The notes under the pieces: generated by a model | What the model was told of the DNA's origin: nothing | The model's database searches: none | Seen by the model: the letters and a program-made list of their open reading frames with translations, nothing else | From: a virus | Lineage: Duplodnaviria; Heunggongvirae; Uroviricota; Caudoviricetes | IMG/VR virus record: IMGVR_UViG_2778261459_000006 | Length of the DNA: 10,942 nucleotides | Strand: one strand, 5' to 3' | In this document: positions 1-10,942 of the stretch, in pieces | How positions within the stretch are numbered: the first letter of the stretch is position 1 | Layout of the letters: each line of letters begins with the position of its first letter | Made by a program: the position numbers and the translations under genes

Positions 1-408
1 GAGATTGATATGTTGAAAAACCAGTTAAGCAACAAAATTGATATTGTAGACAAACCGGTTAATCAACAAATCGAGACCAATGGCGACGCTATTGTAGGAG
101 AACCAGTTATGAAGGACTTAAGCAACAAAAGCGATATTGTAGACAAACCAGTTAATCAACAAAAAGCGGGTGGCCGTCCGGCAAAATTCAAAGTAGAACA
201 GCTAGAGCAATGGCTTAAGGAGCAAGGCGGATATAAGGGAACTATCGACGATTTGGCGCTACATGCGTTCGGCAAGGTCGGCAAAGATGGCAAGCTGCAT
301 GGCGCACCAGGCCGCCACTGGATGTACAAGGCGTTAGCTGAACTGGAGAGCGAGGGGAAAATTGCCAAAGAGGCAGCGACAAGGAGCGGGATTAATATTG
401 TTGCTTAA
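1..408 (+). CDS. 3' part of a junction-spanning XRE-type HTH regulator; continues from 10518..10942, full protein about 251 aa if the molecule is circular
   Basis: Frame is open from nt 1 and in phase with the ORF beginning at 10518; stop TAA at 406-408. Contains a 93-nt (31-aa) tandem repeat, LSNK(I/S)DIVDKPVNQQ, starting at 25 and 118. Followed by an intrinsic terminator. Confidence 0.7.
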   Translation, partial: EIDMLKNQLSNKIDIVDKPVNQQIETNGDAIVGEPVMKDLSNKSDIVDKPVNQQKAGGRPAKFKVEQLEQWLKEQGGYKGTIDDLALHAFGKVGKDGKLHGAPGRHWMYKALAELESEGKIAKEAATRSGINIVA

Positions 409-452
409 CCCTTAAAGCCAACGATTAGCTACAAAACAAGCCATCAAGCGAA

Positions 453-477
453 GCCCAGCCATGCGCTGGGTTTTTTG
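453..477 (+). terminator. Rho-independent terminator after the HTH regulator gene
   Basis: Stem CCCAGC (454-459) / GCTGGG (465-470), 5-nt loop, then TTTTTT (471-476). Confidence 0.7.
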
Positions 478-494
478 TTTGCAAAAAGCCGTAG

Positions 495-524
495 TTGTAA
501 GCCACTCAAAAGCAGGTTTACAAT
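495..524 (+). promoter_or_regulatory. Candidate sigma70 promoter for the alpA-like operon
   Basis: TTGTAA (495-500), 18-bp spacer, TACAAT (519-524). TTGTAA and TTACAA form an inverted pair 17 bp apart, a possible operator. Sequence match only. Confidence 0.35.
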
Positions 525-556
525 AGATCCTGTAACAGCAACAGAGGAACAAGAAA

Positions 557-841
557 ATGAACGCAAACATTGAACAGCAAGTCATGACAATGAAAGACGT
601 CTGCAAACTGTTAAACCGCTCAAGAACGTCAGTTTACGTTGCCATGATGCGCTACCAGGATTTTCCGGAGCCTATGTCACGCGGTCACGGTGTGCGAATG
701 GTCTGGTTAAAGTCTGAGTTAATTGCCTGGTACGAGCAGCACAAGGACGAGCTCGAAGAATCACGGAAAAACGGAATGATCCCGAATGAAAAGGCGATGC
801 GGAAACAACAACAAAAAGAGGAAGTAGAAAATGCTAACTGA
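557..841 (+). CDS. AlpA-family (phage AlpA/Xis-like HTH) regulator, 94 aa
   Basis: ATG at 557 with GAGGA 8 nt upstream. The segment MKDVCKLLNRSRTSVYVAMMRYQDFPEP...WLKSELIAWYE fits the AlpA/excisionase-type HTH pattern by eye. Stop TGA overlaps the next start (ATGCTAACTGA). Confidence 0.75.
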   Translation: MNANIEQQVMTMKDVCKLLNRSRTSVYVAMMRYQDFPEPMSRGHGVRMVWLKSELIAWYEQHKDELEESRKNGMIPNEKAMRKQQQKEEVENAN

Positions 842-1841
842 TACGACTTTACTGCCCGGCCTTGATGATCCAGCACCGTGGGATGATTCCGGCGGAGAGC
901 AGAAAGAAAAACGCCCGGGTGGGAAAGACCAGGGCGATGAGATGGAATCTGATAATGACACCGAATCCAATACGAATATTATCGCAGCAGATGACGGAAA
1001 CATCAACGGCAATAGCGGTAAAAATTCGTCTGCCGTTGAGGAAATCAGAGCAACGAAACCAATAGACCACAGCCTATGGGGATTGCGCAGTTCAGCACGC
1101 AAACCAGTAGCGAAAGCAACCACGGAAGAGCCTAAAGACATGTGGGCGGAAATCCTGGAAGAGGAAGAAAACGAGCAAGCCACGCAGAGTAACCCAGCCG
1201 TCAATCAAAGCGATGATCGTGATGAATGGGTGAAAAAGATGAGCGCTCTTTCGAAACAGTTACGCAATAAAAACAGCGACGGTTGGAAACAATACGAAAG
1301 CGTGCCGCCTGTCGGGATTCAGGACGACATAAAGAAATCAGATTCAGGCATTGCAGTACGCGAGGGTAAGGAGTTCCGGCAGCGTGATGATCTGGTCATA
1401 GAATCGCGTGAAATAACGCGGCCAGAAGCGCCAGGAAGCAACGAAACGCATGAGGCTGAACAATCGCAAGGCCAGCAGGAAACAGTAAGCGAGAAGGCTG
1501 ATAAGGACTGGCGCGGCGGCGACTACTACAGCTATACGAGCGAAGGATGCGCGCATCGCGCCTTTGACCGGGCTATCAAGTATAAGAGTGACGATAAGAC
1601 ATACTGGCAGACAAAAGGGATTTTTCTGACCATCGCCAGTGCAGCACGCAGGAACAATGACGGGGAATGGGTGACTAAAATGACCATATCATCACTGACT
1701 GGCGACACTCACGGTAACGCGTCCAGGAAGATCAAGGGTTGGATAGAAAGACTGGAGAAAGCTGGCCTATTAATCCCGCTTGAGACGAGTAAGAGAGACG
1801 GGAGAGCGTGGAAAATGGGATTCACGGTCCATCGAGGTTAA
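831..1841 (+). CDS. Hypothetical 336-aa protein: long acidic low-complexity N-terminal region plus a C-terminal winged-helix-like domain; candidate iteron-binding replication protein
   Basis: ATG at 831 with GAGGAAG upstream, overlapping the alpA-like stop. N-terminal about 230 aa is rich in D/E/N/S/Q; the C-terminal about 100 aa (…GIFLTIASAARRNNDGEWVTKMTISSL…KIKGWIERLEKAGLLIPLE) looks like a DNA-binding winged helix. Sits directly upstream of the terminator and iterons. Function is inferred from position only. Confidence 0.7.
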   Translation: MLTDTTLLPGLDDPAPWDDSGGEQKEKRPGGKDQGDEMESDNDTESNTNIIAADDGNINGNSGKNSSAVEEIRATKPIDHSLWGLRSSARKPVAKATTEEPKDMWAEILEEEENEQATQSNPAVNQSDDRDEWVKKMSALSKQLRNKNSDGWKQYESVPPVGIQDDIKKSDSGIAVREGKEFRQRDDLVIESREITRPEAPGSNETHEAEQSQGQQETVSEKADKDWRGGDYYSYTSEGCAHRAFDRAIKYKSDDKTYWQTKGIFLTIASAARRNNDGEWVTKMTISSLTGDTHGNASRKIKGWIERLEKAGLLIPLETSKRDGRAWKMGFTVHRG

Positions 1842-1853
1842 ATCAGCAGCAAA

Positions 1854-1878
1854 GCCCGCCGCGTTGGCGGGTTTTTTG
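1854..1878 (+). terminator. Rho-independent terminator after the 336-aa gene
   Basis: Stem CCCGCC (1855-1860) / GGCGGG (1866-1871), loop GCGTT, then TTTTTT (1872-1877). Confidence 0.75.
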
Positions 1879-1933
1879 TGCCTGAACCGTAAACCAACCT
1901 ATCTCACTAATGGTTTACATGTGATGCGAAGCC

Positions 1934-1942
1934 TGTGGATAA
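1934..1942 (-). promoter_or_regulatory. DnaA box, perfect TTATCCACA consensus
   Basis: The + strand reads TGTGGATAA, the reverse complement of TTATCCACA. It lies 12 bp upstream of the iteron array. Confidence 0.6.
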
Positions 1943-1953
1943 CTCAAGATGAA

Positions 1954-2084
1954 CCATCAGTTTTGTACCCATATAAAAATCGAACCATCAGTTTTGTACC
2001 CATATACCATCAGTTTTGTACCCATATAACCATCTTTGAACCATCAGTTTTGTACCCATATACCATCAGTTTTGTACCCATATG
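1954..2084. repeat. Iteron array: five direct copies of the 22-bp unit CCATCAGTTTTGTACCCATATA; candidate plasmid-type replication origin
   Basis: Exact copies at 1954-1975, 1985-2006, 2007-2028 and 2041-2062; the copy at 2063-2084 ends in G. A truncated copy (CCATCTTTG) lies at 2030-2038. Flanked by a DnaA box upstream and an AT-rich tract downstream. Confidence 0.9.
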
Positions 2085-2130
2085 ATTCCCTGAGGGCCGC
2101 GCCGCATCTGGACTACGCCGCCCATTAAGA

Positions 2131-2200
2131 GGTTTTAAGAGAAAAAAAGATAAGAGTATTAAGATCAGGATATTTATTTTTCATAGATCTATGATTGGTG
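2131..2200. other. AT-rich tract next to the iterons; possible DNA-unwinding element
   Basis: AT-rich sequence including A7 and T5 runs and GATC sites, immediately after a GC-rich block (2093-2125). Confidence 0.35.
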
Positions 2201-2525
2201 ACCTTCGGAAAATCATCCGGGTATTGCTAGCTTGCTATTGGCCTGGCAGTGGGCCTACGGCTGGGAACTGGAGAACATGAAACGACGTAAGGCACGGAGC
2301 GCCCACCATAGGCAGACACATAAACATCTGAGAGCGCGCCTTCTATCGCGCTACGCGCTCAATAAAAACCAACGACACCGCCATCCTGAAAGACCAATGG
2401 TTTTATCTCGTATACAGACCAGACATGAAACAGCAGGCTGAAGTGAACACTCAAGCAAGTTTATCCCGCCGCAGACTACCGCAAACTATCATGACCGTGC
2501 AGAATTCGAACTGAATGCCCCCTAG

Positions 2526-2635
2526 AACGCGATGAACACACATACCCGCTACGATTGCATACCTTAAAATCTCACCTCACCACAGAGCGATTGAGACGCC
2601 TTAAAATTGATGCGATTTCGCTAAATTTTTTCACT
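2526..2635. repeat. Long imperfect direct repeat, copy A (about 110 bp)
   Basis: Aligns with 2836-2946; shared blocks AACGCGATNAACACACATA and TTAAAATNGATGCGATTTC..TAAATTTTTTCACT. Confidence 0.85.
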
Positions 2636-2674
2636 TGATGCAGAGCTGTATGCGTGAAGGACAGTTGCGTCCGC

Positions 2675-2735
2675 AACTTTCTTGTTCAAAACCCCAGCCA
2701 TCAAGCGTTGAGCCGAAACTTTCTTGTTCAAAACC
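2675..2735. repeat. Two perfect 19-bp direct repeats, AACTTTCTTGTTCAAAACC, 42 bp apart
   Basis: Copies at 2675-2693 and 2717-2735, lying between the two long direct repeats. Confidence 0.85.
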
Positions 2736-2835
2736 TGGCAAGCCTCACAACCTCCAACGGAGGAAGCTGGGTTAATCAGCTTGATTCTGAGCCGATTGCC
2801 AGCCGGACTACTGACCAGATACTGCCAGGCCATTC

Positions 2836-2946
2836 AACGCGATTAACACACATAAGCGCCACACTTACTTACCTGAAAACTTCACAGCGTCACAGCGCGT
2901 TTTAGACACGTTAAAATCGATGCGATTTCATTAAATTTTTTTCACT
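2836..2946. repeat. Long imperfect direct repeat, copy B (about 111 bp)
   Basis: Aligns with 2526-2635, 310 bp downstream of copy A; the 3' end contains the small palindrome AATCGATGCGATT. Confidence 0.85.
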
Positions 2947-3072
2947 CGCCTGAATGGTGGCAATCAGGACTGATTGCAACATTGCCCCGCCTCGATACTG
3001 AGCGCATAATAAATACATACATTAAGCGGAAACGTCATTAACAGATTTGGAAAAAACAATGGGTTAAACATC

Positions 3073-3693
3073 ATGCGCATATCAAAGCAGCAACGCCAAA
3101 TCCTCGACTATCTGGCAGAAAACGAATCAATCACAGCACGCCAGGCGGCAGATCTCGTTTATGGCGGCAACGTTACCCGCGTACAGGTCGATGCAGCCCG
3201 CCGTTCACTGATGGCGCTGGTCAGCAATGGGCTAATCATGAAACAAGGCCGCGCTTTCGTAGCTGAAAGACATATCAATCACGCTTATAGCCAGGACGTT
3301 GAAGAGTTGCGCCGTCAGATCCTTTGGGTATTCAGCAAAGAGGGGCAGGACTATCTCATTTCTGAGCGTCCAAATTACGCCGCCAAAGAGTTAACAGTAA
3401 GCGGATTGTCGTGCGCACTGGATTATCTTGTCGGTGAAGGTTGCGTTACTTACAAGCAGCTATGGCACGCCCTGAACACGCTTGTAGAAGATGGTTTACT
3501 CATTGCCACGCGTGAGAATATCGAATACTGGATAATGCCGCGTTCAGGTCGCCGCAATCATGCGCGGTATATTTCAGGCAACAAATACAGAACGCCTGAC
3601 TTTAATCCGACACAGGAAGATCGGGACCGTGCCGAAATGATGTGCAGGGAACGGGAGAAAAGATTCATGGACAAGTTGTTTTCGATGCGGTGA
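3073..3693 (+). CDS. 206-aa protein with two tandem winged-helix-like domains; candidate DNA-binding regulator or Rep-like protein
   Basis: ATG at 3073, stop TGA at 3691-3693, then a terminator. Segments QRQILDYLAENESITARQAADLV...LVSNGLIMKQGR and LSCALDYLVGEGCVTYKQLWHALNTLVEDGLLIA each look like a winged helix. Confidence 0.7.
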   Translation: MRISKQQRQILDYLAENESITARQAADLVYGGNVTRVQVDAARRSLMALVSNGLIMKQGRAFVAERHINHAYSQDVEELRRQILWVFSKEGQDYLISERPNYAAKELTVSGLSCALDYLVGEGCVTYKQLWHALNTLVEDGLLIATRENIEYWIMPRSGRRNHARYISGNKYRTPDFNPTQEDRDRAEMMCREREKRFMDKLFSMR

Positions 3694-3699
3694 ACACAA

Positions 3700-3722
3700 G
3701 CGGGCGCAATGCCCGTTTTTCT
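3700..3722 (+). terminator. Rho-independent terminator after the 206-aa gene
   Basis: Stem CGGGC (3701-3705) / GCCCG (3711-3715), loop GCAAT, then TTTTT. Confidence 0.7.
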
Positions 3723-3861
3723 TATCTCATTCCACGCCAGACGAACCAATTTAATCACACCTGAGCAAATGCATAGCCAGAACTTAAGGCCGTCAGAATG
3801 CGTTATATTGCGTTTAAACAGCATCAATTTTTAATTGCTTTTTGATGCGTGAATCGCAGGC

Positions 3862-3890
3862 AAAAAAAATCCCGCGAGTAGCGGCGGGAA
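3862..3890 (-). terminator. Candidate Rho-independent terminator on the minus strand
   Basis: On the minus strand a hairpin (TCCCGC / GCGGGA, 8-nt loop) is followed by a T8 run (complement of the A8 at 3862-3869). No minus-strand ORF is evident, so whatever it terminates would be non-coding or antisense. Confidence 0.45.
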
Positions 3891-4000
3891 ATAGAGACAT
3901 ATCGTTGTAGTTATTAATAGATCACATTTTGAGGCTGAGGATTTGCCTCACTAATATTATCGCGCCGTTACCTTTTAGTCGCAATTGATTGTTTGAAAGA

Positions 4001-4025
4001 GGCTGGATGAATCCGGCCTTTTTTT
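4001..4025 (+). terminator. Rho-independent terminator with no upstream ORF; possible 3' end of a small RNA
   Basis: Stem GGCTGGA (4001-4007) / TCCGGCC (4012-4018) with one G-U pair, loop TGAA, then TTTTTTT (4019-4025). A promoter-like TTGAGG-17-TAATAT lies about 50-70 bp upstream. Confidence 0.6.
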
Positions 4026-4162
4026 CTGGTTGGAGAATCAAAAACAGATAAACGCGGATATAAGTGAGCCATAGTTGTAAAAAACAAACAGACGAGCGAA
4101 AATACTAACATCGGTAAGTGAATCACCCACAGAAAACCGATTATCTTTAAGCCTGGATTTTT

Positions 4163-4194
4163 AGCCCGCTGCCTTACTGGTCGCGGGCTTTTTC
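4163..4194 (+). terminator. Terminator-like hairpin immediately upstream of the RBS of the second alpA-like gene; possible attenuator or sRNA 3' end
   Basis: Stem AGCCCGC (4163-4169) / GCGGGCT (4183-4189), 13-nt loop, then TTTTT; GGAG RBS at 4202-4205 and ATG at 4214. Confidence 0.55.
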
Positions 4195-4213
4195 GTTTAC
4201 AGGAGCCTGAAAG

Positions 4214-4393
4214 ATGAAATCCATTACCCTGAAAGAAGTCTGCAATATTGCAGGCGTTACCCCTGAGACGTATCGGCGCTGGTTAAAAGAAAACTTGCCC
4301 GGTATCCCGTTACCATATACCCCGAAAGGGAAACATCTTCGTTTTTATGAGGACGAAGTGGTCGCCTGGATTAAAGGCCAGCGTGAGGGATAA
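4214..4393 (+). CDS. AlpA/Xis-family small HTH protein, 59 aa; absent from the ORF track
   Basis: AGGAG 8 nt upstream of ATG 4214. Translation is MKSITLKEVCNIAGVTPETYRRWLKENLPGIPLPYTPKGKHLRFYEDEVVAWIKGQREG, a paralog-like pattern of the 557..841 protein (LKEVC / MKDVC ... V-W ... W). Confidence 0.7.
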   Translation: MKSITLKEVCNIAGVTPETYRRWLKENLPGIPLPYTPKGKHLRFYEDEVVAWIKGQREG

Positions 4394-4425
4394 AGCAGTT
4401 TTTTATATTAAGAAGGGATTGGTAA

Positions 4426-5001
4426 ATGAGAAATGAAATCAAATATCAACATATCAAGCGTCTGTGGTGTCTAAAAGATGGCGTTATTTTTACGAGATGG
4501 GGCAATAAGCCTGTTTCTTTCTCCTGTAAAGTAAACGGGCGCCGCTATACAACGATTAAAGTTAACGGAAAATGGCACGCAGTTCTTATTTATGAAGCTA
4601 TTTTTATGCTGTTCCATGACCGCCCAATCGCTGAAGGAAAAGAAATCCACCACAAGGACGGCGATCCAGAAAATAACGCAATTGACAATCTTGTCGAGCT
4701 AACCAGAACGCAGCACAAGAGGATTCATCAATATCAGTGCAACGACCCGCTGCGCGGTATTTGCCTGAATCAAGGCGCATGGGAATTTAAATGGTATGAC
4801 GATAACGGAATATGCCGCAGCCGACGTTTCCACAGTATTAACGAGGCAATAAACTTCCGTGCCGAAATAGAAAAACCTCGCAGAAGAGAATTACGATTGC
4901 TAGGCTTGAACTGTCGTAAAAAATATCGCGGAATTACCGCAAGCCAACTACGCAAAATAAGCCGGAAGCAAAATTCTCGCTTATGGCGCACACACATTTA
5001 A
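4426..5001 (+). CDS. HNH endonuclease with an AP2-like DNA-binding domain, 191 aa
   Basis: HNH signature IHHKDGDPENNAIDNLVELTRTQHKRIH, then an AP2-like segment RGICLNQGAWEFKWYDDNGICRSRRFHSINEAINFRAEI. AAGGGA RBS upstream. Confidence 0.85.
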   Translation: MRNEIKYQHIKRLWCLKDGVIFTRWGNKPVSFSCKVNGRRYTTIKVNGKWHAVLIYEAIFMLFHDRPIAEGKEIHHKDGDPENNAIDNLVELTRTQHKRIHQYQCNDPLRGICLNQGAWEFKWYDDNGICRSRRFHSINEAINFRAEIEKPRRRELRLLGLNCRKKYRGITASQLRKISRKQNSRLWRTHI

Positions 5002-5020
5002 ACAACTGGAGATTTTTATC

Positions 5021-5287
5021 ATGTCTACTCATTCATTAGAACGCTTTATGAATATCGCACCGAAATCAGCTGAACAGGAAGCGCGCGAACAATTTCAGCG
5101 AAAACTAGAAGCAGCAGCGCGGCACATTGTCGAGAAGATGCCGGAGCTACTAATCCCGTTGATGGAAGAGCTGGCAGCAGAGCTTCAGAAAGAGATGCCG
5201 CAAGATATGGAAGGGACGGCACTACAACGACTGCAGTTTGAAGCAAGCCGCTTACTACATCTTCCAGTAGGTGCATTTCGTAAATAA
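5021..5287 (+). CDS. Hypothetical protein, 88 aa, predicted helical
   Basis: ATG start with GGAG upstream; tightly packed between the HNH gene and the next ORF. No family recognised. Confidence 0.55.
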   Translation: MSTHSLERFMNIAPKSAEQEAREQFQRKLEAAARHIVEKMPELLIPLMEELAAELQKEMPQDMEGTALQRLQFEASRLLHLPVGAFRK

Positions 5288-5302
5288 CAGGGAGAACGAA
5301 CT

Positions 5303-5998
5303 ATGAGCAAAACACAGGAAAGAATACACGAGCTTGAGGCTAAATATAGCCGCTTGCTGACTGAGCGTGACCATGCAACTGGCGCTGATCGCTATCTTGC
5401 GGAAAAAGAACTGAAAGCTACTCGTAAGATGATCATTAAGTTGCACGGTAAAAGCATTACAGAAGAGATACAGGGCCAAATACCTGACATGGTGAAACAT
5501 GCACTTGCTGGTGTAACTGCCCAGGTAACCGAACTGCGTAAACAAGCTGGCATGAAGGTTAATGCTGACGAAAAGCCGGACGAAACGCCAGACGAAAAGC
5601 CGCGTGATGAGCGTATCGCTGAGGCTTTGCATGTGGTTAAGAGCAATCTGCTTAACATGGAAATTGATGACCTCATCGACCTTCGGGATCGTGTCCTCAA
5701 GGCGGTTGAAAGTCGTAACCAGGCAGCAGAGCAAAACAAGCTGGCAGACATGACGGTTAACGCGAACCACGTCGGAGCACCGGACGCCGCCAGTTACTTT
5801 GACCCTAATCTGCCGAAAGAGATAGCTGACTACCTCGATCCGCCGTTGCCGCCAGAAATTGAAGCGCATTTCGCCGAAACGAAAACGGTCGCAGGGGTTG
5901 ACCTGGATTCATACTTTCAGGGCAACAATGAAGCGGCAGGGATTGATTTAGACGAATATTTCCTGCCAAGCAAGCACTACAGCGTAAGTAAAGACTGA
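5303..5998 (+). CDS. Hypothetical protein, 231 aa, with acidic C-terminal repeats
   Basis: GGGAGA RBS 7 nt upstream of the ATG. Short repeats DEKPDETPDEKP and DLD(S/E)YF / YFDPNLP / YLDPPLP. Followed by a terminator. No family recognised. Confidence 0.7.
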   Translation: MSKTQERIHELEAKYSRLLTERDHATGADRYLAEKELKATRKMIIKLHGKSITEEIQGQIPDMVKHALAGVTAQVTELRKQAGMKVNADEKPDETPDEKPRDERIAEALHVVKSNLLNMEIDDLIDLRDRVLKAVESRNQAAEQNKLADMTVNANHVGAPDAASYFDPNLPKEIADYLDPPLPPEIEAHFAETKTVAGVDLDSYFQGNNEAAGIDLDEYFLPSKHYSVSKD

Positions 5999-6005
5999 GC
6001 AAACA

Positions 6006-6026
6006 GGGGCCGCAGCGCCCCTTTTC
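6006..6026 (+). terminator. Rho-independent terminator after the 231-aa gene
   Basis: Stem GGGGC / GCCCC with a 6-nt loop, followed by TTTT. Confidence 0.6.
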
Positions 6027-6045
6027 ACTTTCTGGAGATGAGATC

Positions 6046-6324
6046 ATGTCAACGTCAATTACACTTCGGATCTGTATGGGTATGGCACGCGTTATCACGA
6101 AAGAGGTCACAGATATTAAGCACAGCAGCCGGGAGCTACCATTGCGCCGCCAGCAGTTGCGGATTTTCGCCAGTTACGTTTTTGGCACGTTCGCATCACT
6201 GAAGCGCAAATTGAATGGCGGGCCGGTCAGCAATGAAGAAGCGAATTTTTTAAAAAGACTCACGATGATAGAAAAAGACCTGCACACGCAGTTAGAAAGT
6301 ATCAAGGCAGACGTAGGCGAGTAA
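6046..6324 (+). CDS. Hypothetical protein, 92 aa
   Basis: ATG at 6046 with GGAG 9 nt upstream; stop TAA at 6322-6324. No family recognised. Confidence 0.5.
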   Translation: MSTSITLRICMGMARVITKEVTDIKHSSRELPLRRQQLRIFASYVFGTFASLKRKLNGGPVSNEEANFLKRLTMIEKDLHTQLESIKADVGE

Positions 6325-6375
6325 GTTAGCGAGGTGTTAGCGAACGATAGCGGGTAGTTAGCGAACGATAACGGG
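6325..6375. repeat. Tandem direct repeats of GTTAGCGA; two extended 19-bp copies, GTTAGCGAACGATA(G/A)CGGG, at 21-bp period
   Basis: Copies at 6325-6332, 6336-6354 and 6357-6375, intergenic, immediately upstream of the tail module. Confidence 0.8.
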
Positions 6376-6458
6376 CCGTTTTTTGAAGTTAGTTTTCAAT
6401 GCTAAAACCGCCGAAATCCGCGCCATACGGGTTTTTGCACTATATGAGGGGCGCTTTT

Positions 6459-6722
6459 ATGGGGGTAATTTTCGGACAAGTACTATGCGCGCGCGAGGCA
6501 ATCATGAAGCAAGACATAGCGGAAAGGCTGGAGATACTCGAAAACCAGCGAGAAGAAGCCAGACAGATGCGCAGGGAGGCAAATAAAGAGGGCCGGAAAA
6601 AAGATGCATGGCATCTGAGACAATTCATCAACTTTACAAACCGTTGCATCCAGGAGTGCTACATGGAAGACGCAGAAAACTGGCTGGATTCCTTGCCAGA
6701 AAAGCACGGAACAGAGCGATGA
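6459..6722 (+). CDS. Hypothetical protein, 87 aa from the RBS-supported ATG at 6459 (the ORF track starts it at 6399; 6504 is another possible start)
   Basis: GAGGGG 7 nt upstream of ATG 6459. The protein is charged and helical (…IAERLEILENQREEARQMRREANKEGRKK…). Stop TGA at 6720-6722, in the same frame as the next ORF. Confidence 0.45.
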   Translation: MGVIFGQVLCAREAIMKQDIAERLEILENQREEARQMRREANKEGRKKDAWHLRQFINFTNRCIQECYMEDAENWLDSLPEKHGTER

Positions 6723-6743
6723 TTGTTAGACGAAGGGGGTTAC

Positions 6744-7184
6744 ATGCCGATGAGACACCAGGCTGTCATTGAGCAGATCAAGCGGCAGCTAAGGGAAGAA
6801 ATCAAAGAGATTAGCAAGGACGCGGCGACAGCCGCATATGAGATCGCTATCACTGCCGAAGGCTATGCGGTAGCAGATACACCGAGAGACACGGGCACAC
6901 TTATAAACGGCTATTACATCAATATTGACGAAAATCCTGATGGTGCGCACGCCACTTTAGGTAATACGGAACGCTATGCGTATTGGGTTCATGAAATGCC
7001 GGGGATACTGAAAGGTCAACCGCGCGAACATTTCGGGAAGACAAGGGAAGGCGTTGCCTTTGGTGGCGGTACTGAAAAGGGTTGCTATTGGGATCCTGAT
7101 GCAAGGCCCAAATTCCTTGAGCTTGCGCTCGATGAGCATTACGACGAGTTTATGGATATAGCACGCAAATATTTAAAGCGATGA
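6744..7184 (+). CDS. HK97 gp10-like protein (tail completion / head-tail joining family), about 146 aa
   Basis: Motifs PRDTGTL, YAYWVHE and ARPKFLELAL fit the HK97 gp10-like pattern as I recall it. The ORF-track start at 6723 is a TTG; the ATG at 6744 follows a GAAGGGGG RBS. Confidence 0.6.
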   Translation: MPMRHQAVIEQIKRQLREEIKEISKDAATAAYEIAITAEGYAVADTPRDTGTLINGYYINIDENPDGAHATLGNTERYAYWVHEMPGILKGQPREHFGKTREGVAFGGGTEKGCYWDPDARPKFLELALDEHYDEFMDIARKYLKR

Positions 7185-7193
7185 GGTGAGATC

Positions 7194-9374
7194 ATGGGTG
7201 AACAGGTCGGAAGCCTTCAGATAGATATTGACCTGAAGACAAAAAATTTATTGGTAAGCCAAAACCAGGCTGAAAACGCGCTTGATAATATTGGCAATAA
7301 AATCAGCGGTGTGGAACGCAAAACAAAGACCTTTAACACGCAGTTAACTAAAACATCTGCCGCAGTCAAAAGCAGCCTTTCCCCGGCAATTCGCAACGCA
7401 TCGTTTCAGATCGCGGATTTAGCTACCCAATTGCAGATGGGCGGTAATGCTCTGGCGGCATTTGCCGTTCAGGGCGCACAGTTATTAGCTGGCTTTGGCA
7501 CGATGGGCGCGGTAGCTGGCGCGGTGCTGGCTATAGCTGGCGCTATGGGTGGAAGCCTGGCACAAGGCGCTGATAGTGCAGCCGGATCGGTTGAGTACCT
7601 GGACAAGGCGATCACCAAACTGAACGAGGTCATAGCTGTAAATGAGCAGGGCGTGACGGTGATGACTGATAGTTACGCCAATCTTTCTAAGGTTAACGCT
7701 GAAGTAGCGAAACAGATGCGGAACATGGCTGAAATTCAGGCAATTGCAGCACTGCGTGACCTGAAAGAACAGGCAAGCCAGGCACAGGGGGAAATGTCAT
7801 CATTCTGGCGTAGCTTGCAGGGCGGTAAAGCTGACGCAGCAGCAGCAGCACAGGCACTTGATGACCTGGGAATCACGACCAACGACTATAAAGAAGCGAT
7901 CGCCACACTTAACGCCAATCAGCCGGATACACAGGCGCAGATGGCGACGCTGGCTAAATCCGTGATGTATGTTGGCGAAGAATACGATCTGACCAATCAG
8001 CAAGCCTACGAATTCATCCGGGCGCTGAATAAGGCCGCGACAACGAAAACACCGGAAGCAATGCAGGAGCTATCTGGCTTCATGCAGGTATTGCTACAGG
8101 ACACAGAAAACGGTAACGAGGCATTCAGGGAACTGGCTATCAAATTCGTTGATGCACAAACCAAAGGCGCAATGCTGGAAGACCAACTAAACCGACTGAA
8201 AGGCGCTATCAGTGACGCAGCCACAGAAGCCAGAAACGCCAATTTTACCACTATGCTCAACACCGTCGCCGCACGCCTGGCAGCCATTGAGCAAGGTTGG
8301 GAGGCAGGTGTCAGGATGCAGATGAAAGCCCAGGGCTACACTGAAGAGCAGATCGATGAATATGTGAACATGGAAACGGCGTACAGGGATGCAAAAGCCG
8401 CTTTGGACGAGAAGAACAAGGCCGACCGTGAAGCAATTGCGCTATCCAAACGCCAGGCCGCAGAAGCCGCCCGCAAGGCAAAACAGGAAGAAGCTGAAGC
8501 ACAACGCAAGGCCAAACAGTTAGCGGCGCAGAAAGAACAGGCCGGACGCTTTACGCAGCAGGTGATGACGGAATATCAAACGACCGTGGATCCGGCAACA
8601 GGCCAGGCGTTGAACCCTGCCGCACAAGTGGAAATGCAGGAGCAGCAGAAGAAAACGGCATTAGATAAATACAGGCAGTTGGGTGTTTTGGGTGAGCAGG
8701 AGTATCAGAACACGCTAACAGCCATCCAGAAAACTGCATCAATGCGCCGCCAGCAAATCATCAAAGACGAGGCTGACACGTTATTCAACAATCAGCAGCA
8801 GTTGATCGGCACATTTGGCGATTTCTTCGGTGAACTGTCTGGAGTCATAGCAGACGGCGCGGGTGAGCAAAATGCGGCATATCAAGCGCTATTTGCTGTG
8901 CAGAAGGGGTTTGTATTGGCGTCGGCAGCTTTAAGCCTTCAAAAAGCGCTGGCAGAGGCAAACGCCTTACCTTTCCCGGCTAACCTTCCGGCCTATGCGC
9001 AAGCGATGTCAGCAGGTACGCAGATCATTTCAGCTATTCGTGGAATAGCTTTCGGTGGCGGACGCTACAACGGCGGCGCGGTTGGTGCTGGCAACCTGTA
9101 CCGCGTGGGTGAACACGGTAAGCCTGAGATATTCAAGGCGAACAATGGCAGCCAGTACATGATCCCAGGTGATAACGGTCGCGTGATAAGTAATCGTGAC
9201 ATTGGCGGCGGTGGCGGCGTAACAATCAACAGCCCGATCACCATTAACACTACGAATGGCTTCAGTGATGAAGACTCAAGGCGTCTTGAGGAAGCGATGA
9301 AGCGCGTAGCTATGGGCGTTTGCAGGCAGGAGTCAACCAGACCGGGAGGAATGTTAGCCCCGCGCCGCCGTTAA
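7194..9374 (+). CDS. Phage tail tape measure protein, lambda gpH-like, 726 aa
   Basis: N-terminus MGEQVGSLQIDIDLK, then a Gly/Ala-rich hydrophobic segment (…AAFAVQGAQLLAGFGTMGAVAGAVLAIAGAMGG…), a K/A/E/Q-rich helical region and a glycine-rich C-terminus with GNLYRVGEHGKPEIF. This resembles lambda-H-family proteins by eye. Confidence 0.8.
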   Translation: MGEQVGSLQIDIDLKTKNLLVSQNQAENALDNIGNKISGVERKTKTFNTQLTKTSAAVKSSLSPAIRNASFQIADLATQLQMGGNALAAFAVQGAQLLAGFGTMGAVAGAVLAIAGAMGGSLAQGADSAAGSVEYLDKAITKLNEVIAVNEQGVTVMTDSYANLSKVNAEVAKQMRNMAEIQAIAALRDLKEQASQAQGEMSSFWRSLQGGKADAAAAAQALDDLGITTNDYKEAIATLNANQPDTQAQMATLAKSVMYVGEEYDLTNQQAYEFIRALNKAATTKTPEAMQELSGFMQVLLQDTENGNEAFRELAIKFVDAQTKGAMLEDQLNRLKGAISDAATEARNANFTTMLNTVAARLAAIEQGWEAGVRMQMKAQGYTEEQIDEYVNMETAYRDAKAALDEKNKADREAIALSKRQAAEAARKAKQEEAEAQRKAKQLAAQKEQAGRFTQQVMTEYQTTVDPATGQALNPAAQVEMQEQQKKTALDKYRQLGVLGEQEYQNTLTAIQKTASMRRQQIIKDEADTLFNNQQQLIGTFGDFFGELSGVIADGAGEQNAAYQALFAVQKGFVLASAALSLQKALAEANALPFPANLPAYAQAMSAGTQIISAIRGIAFGGGRYNGGAVGAGNLYRVGEHGKPEIFKANNGSQYMIPGDNGRVISNRDIGGGGGVTINSPITINTTNGFSDEDSRRLEEAMKRVAMGVCRQESTRPGGMLAPRRR

Positions 9375-9636
9375 CCAACTCCCACGCCAGGGGGATAGAC
9401 TGGCGGACCCTTCACGCTCCTACGCAAAAATTCCCTCACAATCGCCCTGTCAATTTTTCAGATTTCACCAGAACGCGCCTGAAACAGCCTTCCCACATCC
9501 TTGATATTCCGTACGCCCTGCTAAAAGCGTGATCTGCGACAAAAATTGTACTTTTTGCCGTTGATTCGGGGTCTGTATGGGAATAATCTCACAATCAAAG
9601 AGAGGTAAGGGTATTTGGGAAATGGAGGAAAGTATC

Positions 9637-10263
9637 ATGGCTAACGCAGCTTATATTCGTGTTTCTACTATCGCTCAGGATACATTGCGCCAACGCGAGG
9701 CTATCGCTAACACTGGCATGAAGTTTGAGAAAATCGTTGAAGAGAAAAGGTCAGGTAAAGACCTCGATCGCCCGGCACTGCGGGAGCTATGCGGCTGGTT
9801 ACGTGAAGGTGACGACCTGTACGTCGCATCAATTGACCGCCTGGGGCGCAAACTGACTGATGTAATGGGCGTGGTTGATGAACTGCGGCAGAAAGGGGTT
9901 CGGGTCCACTTTCTGAAAGAAGGGCAGATCATCGGTGGCGAGATGAACGCGGTTCAGGAGTTCTTTATTCAGCTCATGGCAGCAGCCGCGCAGATGGAAC
10001 GTAGCTTTATGCTTGAACGCCAGAAAGAGGCGAACGAAGCCAGGAGGGCGGCAGGGAAACCGGTTGGGCGTGGGCTGGCACCGAAGATTAAGCAGCAGCT
10101 GCCGTACATCCTCAAGGACATGGAACAACGCAAGGAGTCCATGAGCGACCTTTGCCGCAAATACAAAGTGGCGCGAAGCACAATGTACCGGATCCGCGAC
10201 AACGCCATTCGTGACGGGAAGCTGCCGGAAATTGTGAAGGTCAAAAAGGTCGTCATCAACTAA
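9637..10263 (+). CDS. Small serine recombinase (resolvase/invertase family), 208 aa
   Basis: N-terminal catalytic pattern AYIRVSTIAQ...SGKDLDRPALREL...GDDLYVASIDRLGRKL...GVRVHFL and a C-terminal HTH (ARSTMYRIR). GGAGGA 7 nt upstream of ATG 9637; the ORF-track start at 9577 is probably too far upstream. Confidence 0.9.
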   Translation: MANAAYIRVSTIAQDTLRQREAIANTGMKFEKIVEEKRSGKDLDRPALRELCGWLREGDDLYVASIDRLGRKLTDVMGVVDELRQKGVRVHFLKEGQIIGGEMNAVQEFFIQLMAAAAQMERSFMLERQKEANEARRAAGKPVGRGLAPKIKQQLPYILKDMEQRKESMSDLCRKYKVARSTMYRIRDNAIRDGKLPEIVKVKKVVIN

Positions 10264-10276
10264 CCCACCAAAACAA

Positions 10277-10313
10277 AGGGGACTCAGCAATATCACCGAG
10301 TCCCCTTTTTCTT
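10277..10313 (+). terminator. Rho-independent terminator after the recombinase gene
   Basis: Stem AGGGGACTC (10277-10285) / GAGTCCCCT (10298-10306), 12-nt loop, then TTTTT. Confidence 0.8.
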
Positions 10314-10365
10314 TCTCACAATCCCCGCTGACATTATAACCGCCATTCCCTGGTTTTATCATTTG

Positions 10366-10517
10366 TTGACCAGCCTGCTATTTGTAGACAAATCCAATCA
10401 CATCTAAATCATCAACCAATAAATTGACCTAAATCATTTTATCAGTCGCTTAACCAGGTGTATTTTGTAGTCAAACAAGGCTTGACAAGGTTTAGCGACA
10501 AATTAAAGGGGTGAACA
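10366..10517 (+). promoter_or_regulatory. Promoter/operator region of the HTH regulator gene
   Basis: TTGAC(C/A) occurs three times at exact 58-bp spacing (10366, 10424, 10482). The motif TTGTAGACAA (10382-10391) and its variant TTGTAGTCAA (10466-10475) also recur inside the downstream coding repeats. GGGG RBS 5-6 nt before ATG 10518. No convincing -10 element. Confidence 0.4.
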
Positions 10518-10942
10518 ATGTATCAGCCAATGACTTTACCGGATCTGCTATTTGCCGCCGCCGACCGCGCGGGCTATGTCAACAGTAGCGGCAAACTGAA
10601 ACGCAAGGGGTTAGCTGATGCTCTCGGTATCGGTGAGCAGGCGCTTAACAGCTACATGAAAGGTAGCCGGGATGTTAGCACAGAACAACTAAATAACATG
10701 CTGACATTGCTTGGCGTGTACGGCATCGCACCATTCAAGGGCAATCAATGGATGGCGCTGGACGTGGATTATAAAGCGCGTAGCGACGAGATTGTCAGTA
10801 ACAAGATGATTGCGCTGGAACGCGATAACCAGCAAAAGGCACAGCAGATCGCAGCACTGAAAGCTGAGATTGATATGTTGAAAAACCAGTTAAGCAACAA
10901 AATTGATATTGTAGACAAACCGGTTAATCAACAAATCGAGAC
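10518..10942 (+). CDS. 5' part of the junction-spanning XRE-type HTH regulator (continues at 1..408)
   Basis: ATG at 10518; the N-terminus has an HTH pattern (GLADALGIGEQALNSYMKGSRDVSTEQL) followed by a coiled-coil-like segment. The frame runs off the window end and is in phase with 1..408. Confidence 0.7.
   Translation, partial: MYQPMTLPDLLFAAADRAGYVNSSGKLKRKGLADALGIGEQALNSYMKGSRDVSTEQLNNMLTLLGVYGIAPFKGNQWMALDVDYKARSDEIVSNKMIALERDNQQKAQQIAALKAEIDMLKNQLSNKIDIVDKPVNQQIE
10866..10942. repeat. Terminal 77-nt exact duplicate of nt 1-77; circular-contig overlap
   Basis: Direct comparison shows 77 of 77 identical, ending exactly at the window edge. Confidence 0.85.

Follow-up and report, generated by a model that had tools for sequence, protein, structure and literature searches.

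A circular Escherichia coli element with an iteron-type replicon and phage tail genes, a candidate plasmid form of a phage-satellite-like family related to CPZ-55

What is a DNA circle from Escherichia coli that joins a plasmid-like origin and satellite-style regulators to two phage tail genes? The question is raised by the IMG/VR record IMGVR_UViG_2778261459_000006 (Caudoviricetes), of which we analysed the whole stretch of 10,942 nt, hereafter the window. A preliminary description, made from the letters alone, had taken it for a mosaic element without capsid or packaging genes, in a combination not recognised from any described satellite family. In our analysis the window fits best among the phage satellites, as a new variant at family level whose plasmid backbone and cargo of tail proteins are unusual. 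We lean, at slightly better than even chances, to the interpretation that it belongs, as a plasmid form, to an E. coli/Shigella family of phage-satellite-like elements that has not been described before and whose integrated forms are islands of the CPZ-55 type. A fuller model is offered more tentatively, as somewhat short of an even bet: that the family switches between iteron-plasmid and integrase backbones and replaces the tail tape measure protein (TMP), and sometimes the neck protein, of a helper to give chimeric tails of mEp021/mEpimmI-type phages, with CPZ-55 of K-12 as a decayed member.

Is the circle real? The first 77 bases of the window are identical to its last 77, as expected from a k = 77 assembler on a closed circle, and the window is therefore a closed circle of 10,865 bp. 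It is the entire contig NNVN01000081.1 of GCA_002485715.1, the assembly of an E. coli isolate, and E. coli is the recorded source of its proteins. All 13 credible genes lie on the plus strand, in the circular order AlpA1-Rep, origin, p206, AlpA2, HNH, p88, p231, p92, p107, gp10-like, TMP, recombinase and junction regulator. Such a mixture might be an assembly artefact, a chimera of plasmid and prophage pieces, and it is true that the DNA matches are mosaic, with no single record covering more than 37% of the window. However, NCBI, JGI, ENA and Logan yielded five or more circles of 10.8-12 kb, assembled independently, with the same architecture; L012, L013, L102 and L104 close by end overlaps of 99, 55, 30 and 29 bp, respectively, and L103, assembled independently, has the unit length of L102, 11,973 bp. 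Since these circles keep the gene order of the window, a chimera is effectively refuted, and we consider it barely conceivable. A close full-length match to a known plasmid or phage, which the preliminary description had named as the other result that would undo its claim, did not emerge among 72,556 plasmid and 50,697 phage records; the only near matches there were to the recombinase gene, in two plasmids of 8 kb, to 91 nt in one plasmid of 9 kb, and to 164 nt of the TMP gene of phage mEp013. Stx phages gave a further match of 36 nt (E 1e-3). The window is thus no chimera, and no orphan either.

To what family, then, does it belong? The comparison draws on the operon headed by the second AlpA gene, hereafter the late operon:

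4214-4393, plus strand: AlpA2, second AlpA/MerR-type helix-turn-helix (HTH) gene, heading the late operon (HTH_17, 33.4 bits; MerR_1, 27.5 bits)
4426-5001, plus strand: HNH endonuclease (Pfam HNH_3, 1.2e-10; 13 PHROG HNH families)
5021-5287, plus strand: p88, an 88-aa family core protein without a profile match
5303-5998, plus strand: p231, a 231-aa helical protein with an acidic, low-confidence C-terminus (AlphaFold2: long helices at 3-81, remainder of low confidence)
6046-6324, plus strand: p92, a 92-aa universal core protein and likely homolog of K-12 YffM
6399-6722, plus strand: p107, a 107-aa (or 87-aa) protein in the position held by a small-terminase (TerS)-like gene in relatives, common to island L006 alone
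6723-7184, plus strand: HK97 gp10-like neck/tail-completion protein (phrog_5, 7.5e-9; HK97-gp10_like, E 0.0014)
7194-9374, plus strand: TMP, 726 aa (phrog_1538, 3e-100)

We clustered the open reading frames (ORFs) of 15 elements, nine of them circular or plasmid-type (five confirmed circles, three plasmid records and one unclosed contig) and six chromosomal. The p92/YffM protein was present in all 15, AlpA and p88 in 14 each, an Sf6-type TerS-like protein in 13, a YffS-like HTH protein and the TMP in 12 each, and p206, the HNH endonuclease and a p231-like protein in ten each, the last in 14 if a remote hhalign link is counted. The TerS-like protein of the relatives matches Pfam PF20901 and the small terminase of Sf6 (PDB 4dzp, E 4e-9). 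The window has the shared core of p92/YffM, p88, an AlpA-headed late operon and a YffS-like HTH gene. The gp10-like gene and the serine recombinase are each found in just three of the 15 elements, the window included, and the window, which has no TerS-like gene, is an atypical member of its family.

Beyond these 15, partial and mosaic DNA matches to the window, in the form of islands or fragments, turned up in about 5% of complete E. coli genomes (262 of 5,426). The five islands examined are 10-12 kb long with a tyrosine integrase adjoining; four lie between eutB and eutA, the CPZ-55 locus, and one at ychJ. Complete E. coli genomes also include three plasmids, two of 8 kb and one of 9 kb, that are cousins without a TMP, and one strain, Res13-Lact-PEB14-36, holds both a TMP-bearing island (NZ_CP062863) and a TMP-less plasmid, L008 (NZ_CP062859, 8,009 bp). 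A search for p92 patterns in 100,044 species-representative genomes found none, and the 78 TMP matches in other Enterobacterales, again among species representatives, had no family core gene alongside; at this search sensitivity the family looks confined to E. coli/Shigella. The window had been described as a mosaic, and a mosaic of plasmid replicon, satellite-style regulators and virion genes it is; it is not an isolated one, given a sizeable E. coli/Shigella family with its integrated members at the CPZ-55 locus, a connection that the preliminary description had not recognised.

The two kinds of member differ in their backbone. Rep, the putative replication initiator, belongs to every one of the nine circular or plasmid-type elements and is missing from all six islands; for the tyrosine integrase it is the other way round. 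This division bears on the proposal that the window is an excised circular intermediate of a chromosomal island, with its serine recombinase as the integrase. Satellites do circularise upon induction, and the chromosomal cousins are close; yet the window has no tyrosine integrase, the chromosomal forms have neither Rep nor iterons, the recombinase is of the small resolvase/invertase class and not a large serine integrase, several circular relatives are without any recombinase, and the contig closes cleanly in an isolate assembly. We regard an excised intermediate as very improbable.

In K-12 the eut locus is the site of CPZ-55, a classic and long unexplained cryptic prophage (NC_000913.3 2558691-2565480; intZ and yffL-yffS, between eutB and eutA). 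At 6.8 kb it is shorter than the window, from which it further differs in being integrated next to a tyrosine integrase and in having no Rep, iterons or TMP. It resembles the family in four of its proteins: YffM corresponds to p92, YffS to the HTH regulator at the junction of the circle, YffO to the Sf6-type TerS-like protein of the relatives, and YffP to C12, the protein between the TerS-like protein and the TMP in fuller relatives. These identities of the K-12 proteins are tentative. The TMP of fuller islands at this locus is 86-93% identical to that of the window, and from its gene content CPZ-55 appears to be a decayed member of the family. We found no published link of CPZ-55 or its y-genes to satellites.

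What maintains the window as a circle? The DnaA box, iterons, AT-rich tract and small serine recombinase that had been read as plasmid features were all recovered:

557-841, plus strand: AlpA1, AlpA-family HTH gene heading the replication operon (HTH_17, 29.3 bits against a cutoff of 27; Phage_AlpA, E 0.004)
831-1841, plus strand: Rep, putative replication initiator of 336 aa, restricted to circular family members and adjoining the iterons
1853-1878, plus strand: terminator-like hairpin with T-run just after Rep, read from the sequence
1934-1942, minus strand: perfect DnaA box TTATCCACA, 11 nt upstream of the first iteron
1953-2083, plus strand: five perfect 22-nt iterons ACCATCAGTTTTGTACCCATAT (0 expected in 200 shuffles)
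2125-2200, no strand assigned: AT-rich tract (75% AT, with GATC sites), by composition a putative DNA-unwinding element
9577-10263 (likely start 9637), plus strand: small serine recombinase of the resolvase/invertase class (Resolvase, 1e-31; phrog_125, 9e-51)
10275-10308: bidirectional terminator after the recombinase

A Rep adjoining tandem iterons, with a DnaA box and an AT-rich tract, is the layout of an iteron-type replicon. The lone DnaA box is not significant by count; what counts is its position 11 nt before the first iteron. AlpA1, which overlaps Rep by 11 nt, also matches PHROG excisionase/regulator families. Rep itself had no match in Pfam, PHROGs or NCBIfam and no primase/helicase domain, a search of PDB sequences gave nothing meaningful, and against known Rep families there was no detectable sequence similarity and no significant fold similarity. 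The AlphaFold2 model has a disordered acidic N-terminus, a beta domain at 150-196 and a C-terminal winged helix at 237-332. Homologs of Rep are found almost only on contigs of ~8-13 kb, some of them with PF13730 or PF13545, and the sole match of the replicon in the curated plasmid database is distant (28%, two 8-kb plasmids). There is comparative evidence as well. In the six other circular members checked, a separate set of 3-6 direct repeats, mostly of ~22 nt, follows directly upon each member's own variant of Rep (three copies of 38 nt in L104), and one of the six, L104, has a DnaA box as well; the AT-rich tract was assessed in the window itself. Repeats that change together with the Rep next to them are what comparison would show for an iteron replicon. 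Small iteron theta plasmids such as pSC101, R6K and pPS10 share with the window a Rep, a DnaA box, 22-nt direct iterons, an AT tract and a resolvase; the window differs from them by its unrecognisable Rep family and by the phage-related remainder. As to minor points, the first ~130 residues of Rep (window 831-1230) are acidic and predicted to be disordered, the homologs vary between 271 and 339 aa via indels there, and a 66-aa ORF at 865-1065 is conserved in five elements, most likely owing to its overlap with Rep alone.

Are the tail genes cargo or debris? The two tail genes noticed at the outset are the gp10-like neck/tail-completion gene and the TMP gene. The TMP is 85-93% identical in nine relatives and intact, at 726-727 aa, in ten elements, and its dN/dS relative to the window is 0.11-0.19 at a dS of 0.3-0.65. 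Because its length is invariant and its dN/dS this low, the TMP is, on sequence grounds, functional and kept by purifying selection. Variation is greatest in its first 50 and its last 125 residues; the centre is 96-99% conserved within the family.

These data have to be set against the possibility that the window is a phage-remnant plasmid, in which a small iteron plasmid caught part of a siphovirus morphogenesis region and now bears it as a passenger, transfer by a helper playing no part. In its favour, there is no packaging evidence, the window is without the TerS-like gene, the TMP-less cousins are 8-9-kb plasmids typed as non-mobilizable in PLSDB, and CPZ-55 of K-12 is without a TMP too. 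However, plasmid and integrated members that have diverged, the latter at two att sites, still show one gene order. A passively carried fragment would be expected to decay, as seems to have happened to CPZ-55 of K-12, whereas this TMP keeps an exact length and is under constraint. Moreover, the genes retained (TerS-like, neck, TMP, HNH) are specificity parts and not a random piece of phage. We therefore take a passive remnant to be unlikely.

No capsid, portal, terminase, tail-tube or lysis gene was matched by any ORF of the window in Pfam, PHROGs or NCBIfam, as had been stated, and none of the six short unannotated ORFs is big enough for a large terminase (TerL), portal or major capsid protein. 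The wider statement that packaging genes are lacking is only partly right, because the window has an HNH endonuclease of the class that assists terminases in HK97-like phages.

Which phage might serve as helper? Among 50,697 phage records, the C-terminal ~95 residues of the TMP have their best matches in mEp013, MagusPhagus, mEp554, mEp515, mEp021, mEp010 and mEp044 (63-72%; 60% by BLASTP over 139 columns); taken over the C-terminal ~125 aa, identity to TMPs of the mEp013/mEp021 group is 60-72%. The TMP of one relative matches mEp013 over 365 aa at 52%, that of another over the N-terminal 75 aa at 44%. The top seven matches of the gp10-like protein are those same seven phages, at 43-48% identity. 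The TerS-like proteins of the relatives and K-12 YffO are 30-43% identical to the product of mEp013 gene 26408-26893, which lies directly upstream of a 1.5-kb ORF (26896-28374), by position a putative TerL gene. Three independent genes, those for the TMP ends, the gp10-like protein and the relatives' TerS-like protein, point to the mEp021/mEpimmI group. Phages of the mEpimmI group are temperate, non-lambdoid coliphages that depend on Nus factors and are reported to be common in the gut (PMC11893012). The TMP of the window has 726 aa and that of mEp013 has 735 aa. On the assumption that tail length is proportional to TMP length, the element TMP would not alter the tail length appreciably. We gave no weight to the agreement of five unit lengths (54.3 kb) with the size of an mEpimmI genome (53-54.7 kb), which the ~12-kb members do not fit and which sits badly with the headful packaging that an Sf6-type TerS suggests.

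How would such an element work? We envision the AlpA1-Rep operon with its DnaA box, iterons and AT tract as an iteron-type replicon that would maintain the circle, with the small serine recombinase most likely resolving multimers. The XRE-like protein of the junction, p206, or both would hold the late operon off, and its leader contains two terminator-like hairpins. Infection by, or induction of, a helper siphovirus of the mEp021/mEpimmI type would then turn on AlpA2 and the late operon; antitermination at the late-operon leader is a guess prompted by the two hairpins and by the Nus dependence of the helper group. The element would add its neck/tail-completion protein and its TMP, with ends that resemble those of the helper and a family-specific centre, to virions otherwise made by the helper, which would give chimeric tails, and the HNH nuclease, together with the TerS-like protein in most relatives, may divert helper capsids to element DNA. 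As a speculative benefit, a different TMP core might allow entry into cells that block helper DNA via TMP-acting mechanisms. What the data show are the anatomy of the replicon, the homologies and the purifying selection on the TMP; helper dependence is what we infer.

The same tail genes could be put to another use. If the element served defence against phages, as a plasmid or as an island, its TMP and neck protein might act as decoys that poison the assembly of mEpimmI-like tails, with no spread required. Interference with tail assembly is documented for PICIs and P4-like elements (PMC11364771) and for PLE11 (PMC12987554), and the TMP ends mimic phage interfaces; on the other side, PADLOC, run on the window, returned homing-endonuclease models for the HNH gene alone and no defence gene, and the TerS-like protein of the relatives points to DNA packaging, beyond defence alone. 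Defence as the sole function seems to us an improbable account. The defence and satellite models are plausibly compatible, as PLE does both interference and transfer.

Several observations weigh against the helper-dependent satellite proposed here. Virion packaging has no experimental or virome support. No close relative emerged from IMG/VR, where the best 79 of about 600 matching stretches were all phage-type contigs without a family core gene. The window does not have the TerS-like gene present in 13 of the 15 members and has the unrelated p107 in its place, no tail assembly chaperone was recognised in it, and six of its ORFs are without annotation. Regarding the helper, identity to the mEp phages is moderate, a comparison of cos/pac sequences with mEp013 gave short matches at chance level only, mEpimmI-like structural modules are found in ~35 of the 5,426 complete genomes, and the listed genomes with such modules do not overlap with the listed island-bearing genomes. 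Regarding the replicon, the Rep model has a mean pLDDT of 52, which is low confidence, its best PDB fold match is TubR (E 0.016), with initiator and RepA_N matches non-significant, and Rep is essentially absent from PLSDB. As the identities are moderate and no cos/pac DNA is shared, the true helper may be another, closer and unsequenced phage.

How does the proposed satellite family compare with described ones? The window lacks defining features of P4-like elements, PICIs, cfPICIs and PLEs, and the view that it fits no described family is borne out. It resembles PICIs in its AlpA-headed operons (two HTH_17/AlpA-type genes, the PICI type of regulator), its HNH gene, the TerS-like gene of its relatives and a size of 10-15 kb, and dependence on a temperate siphovirus is the working model for both. 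Unlike a PICI, it is circular with no integrase match in Pfam or PHROGs and has no pri-rep module, and it has a TMP and a gp10-like gene. SatelliteFinder forbids tail profiles for both PICIs and cfPICIs (PMC10085698). The capsid module of cfPICIs (TerL, portal, protease, major capsid, head-tail adaptor and connector) found no match in any ORF. P4 is likewise a satellite with extrachromosomal maintenance and an AlpA-type regulator, but the origin of the window is of another type (iteron/Rep), and general Pfam, PHROGs and NCBIfam scans, in which the presence of a model in each library was unconfirmed, returned no match for the P4 hallmarks Sid, Psu, Delta, alpha primase-helicase and integrase. 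Nor is the window a phage-plasmid, which has a full virion and lysis set; at 10.9 kb it has two detected virion genes. It does not show the integration of the CPZ-55 type either, next to a tyrosine integrase (IntZ at eut, another at ychJ).

A TMP borne by a satellite is not unprecedented. PLE, a satellite of phage ICP1 in Vibrio cholerae, has no capsid genes and encodes its own TMP, and chimeric satellite/helper tails have been shown experimentally; among its other products are a tail assembly chaperone and a baseplate hub, and its TMP falls 95 aa short of the helper's (PMC12987554). In gene content, the window shares with PLE the possession of a TMP and the lack of capsid genes. PLE differs in being chromosomal, in its Vibrio host and myovirus helper, and in its large serine integrase, RepA_N initiator and TcaP scaffold, where the window has a small resolvase-class enzyme, non-significant RepA_N fold matches and, as its second virion gene, a neck protein. 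The EPIPs of Mycolicibacterium are ~11 kb long and have a predicted TMP, head-tail joining genes, among them adaptor and stopper, and a serine integrase, and tail hijacking via the TMP has been proposed for them (bioRxiv 10.64898/2025.12.02.691453). The window resembles them in size, TMP, head-tail joining genes and a serine recombinase; they differ in being from Actinobacteria and in having a TerS, scaffold, major capsid and serine integrase, none of which was detected in the window. Some cf-PICIs are also predicted to encode a TMP. With regard to the TMP, the window probably acts most like PLE and the EPIPs, by analogy.

If the satellite interpretation is correct, tail remodelling by satellites, shown so far only for PLE and ICP1, would gain a model compatible with E. 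coli K-12, on which the mEp phages grow. It would also explain the nature of CPZ-55 and related eut-locus islands, and it would mean that the same satellite cargo can travel on either type of backbone, plasmid or integrative. Such elements escape the satellite finders now in use, in which tail genes are forbidden and integrases expected.

The remaining regulators and non-coding features of the circle are these:

10518-10942, plus strand: 5' part of the YffS-like XRE/HTH regulator, from an ORF reconstructed across the circular junction
1-408, plus strand: 3' part of the same junction ORF (coding 78-408, as bases 1-77 repeat 10866-10942)
450-474: terminator-like hairpin after the junction regulator
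2277-2941, no strand assigned: conserved non-coding block, common to plasmid and chromosomal relatives
3073-3693, plus strand: p206, a putative winged-helix regulator of 206 aa with weak HTH_24, Sta1 and Ren-like matches and its own terminator at 3698-3718
about 4000-4030 and 4164-4200, plus strand: two terminator-like hairpins with T-runs in the AlpA2 leader

The preliminary description had also listed an XRE repressor-like gene beside the two AlpA-family genes, and all are present; the XRE-like gene is a single junction gene of 251 aa (10518-10942, then 78-408), with an HTH_3 domain at residues 26-67 (E 3.9e-4) that is below the Pfam gathering score. It is 63-94% identical to the right-end gene of the chromosomal islands and 23% identical to K-12 YffS. 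An imperfect 77-nt repeat inside it (1-77 and 94-170, at a spacing of 93 nt) encodes LSNKxDIVDKPVNQQ, and the lengths of its relatives, 236-252 aa, may reflect the number of repeat copies. The exact sequence of p206 is found on 474 E. coli/Shigella contigs; for p206, as for the gp10-like protein, a search of PDB sequences gave nothing meaningful. The hairpins before AlpA2 suggest control by transcription antitermination. Plasmid L008 has a similar hairpin 44 nt before its AlpA gene, and such hairpins are not present in all relatives.

Among the late-operon proteins, p231 corresponds to two adjacent genes (~80 and ~140 aa) in most relatives, by fusion here or a split there; it is related to a 147-155-aa protein of the islands (hhalign, 96.6%), and its C-terminus has repeated D-x-D-x-Y-F motifs. 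p107 was considered as a hidden TerS and rejected (hhalign probability against the TerS-like proteins, 0.2%). The gap between p92 and p107, the TerS-like position in relatives, has a tandem 21-nt repeat at 6327-6368 (TAGCGAGGTGTTAGCGAACGA and TAGCGGGTAGTTAGCGAACGA). In L102 (7427-7930), L103 (2309-2812) and L104 (3216-3716), the late operon has a cyclophilin-type peptidyl-prolyl isomerase (PF00160) upstream of the TerS-like and TMP genes. In HK97, a TMP and a periplasmic chaperone are reportedly linked in DNA injection, and it is conceivable that this isomerase is linked to TMP function.

The recombinase lies at much the same distance from Gin, gamma-delta/Tn3 and Sin (PDB matches of ~1e-19) and is 97% identical to that of 8-kb E. 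coli plasmids, L008 included; an invertible segment for it was sought and rejected, with no suitable inverted repeats in the window. Scans of the window with Rfam and for tRNA genes returned nothing, and a possible small RNA on the minus strand at 3855-3952 was dismissed (z = -1.26).

The first ~350 nt of the conserved non-coding block (2277-2635) are 72-92% identical across plasmid and chromosomal relatives despite their different backbones, and their GC skew is strongly negative. The block could be a packaging or regulatory site; a structured RNA was rejected here, as folding of the consensus yields a weak -9.2 kcal/mol and covariation counts against it. Specific to the window is the duplication of a 106-nt piece (2526-2631 and 2836-2941, 78% identity), single-copy in relatives, which flanks a 204-bp insert. 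Within this insert are a hairpin and a pair of direct repeats of 23 nt (2671-2693 and 2713-2735), and a portion of it (2746-2836) is 92% identical to plasmid CP057168.

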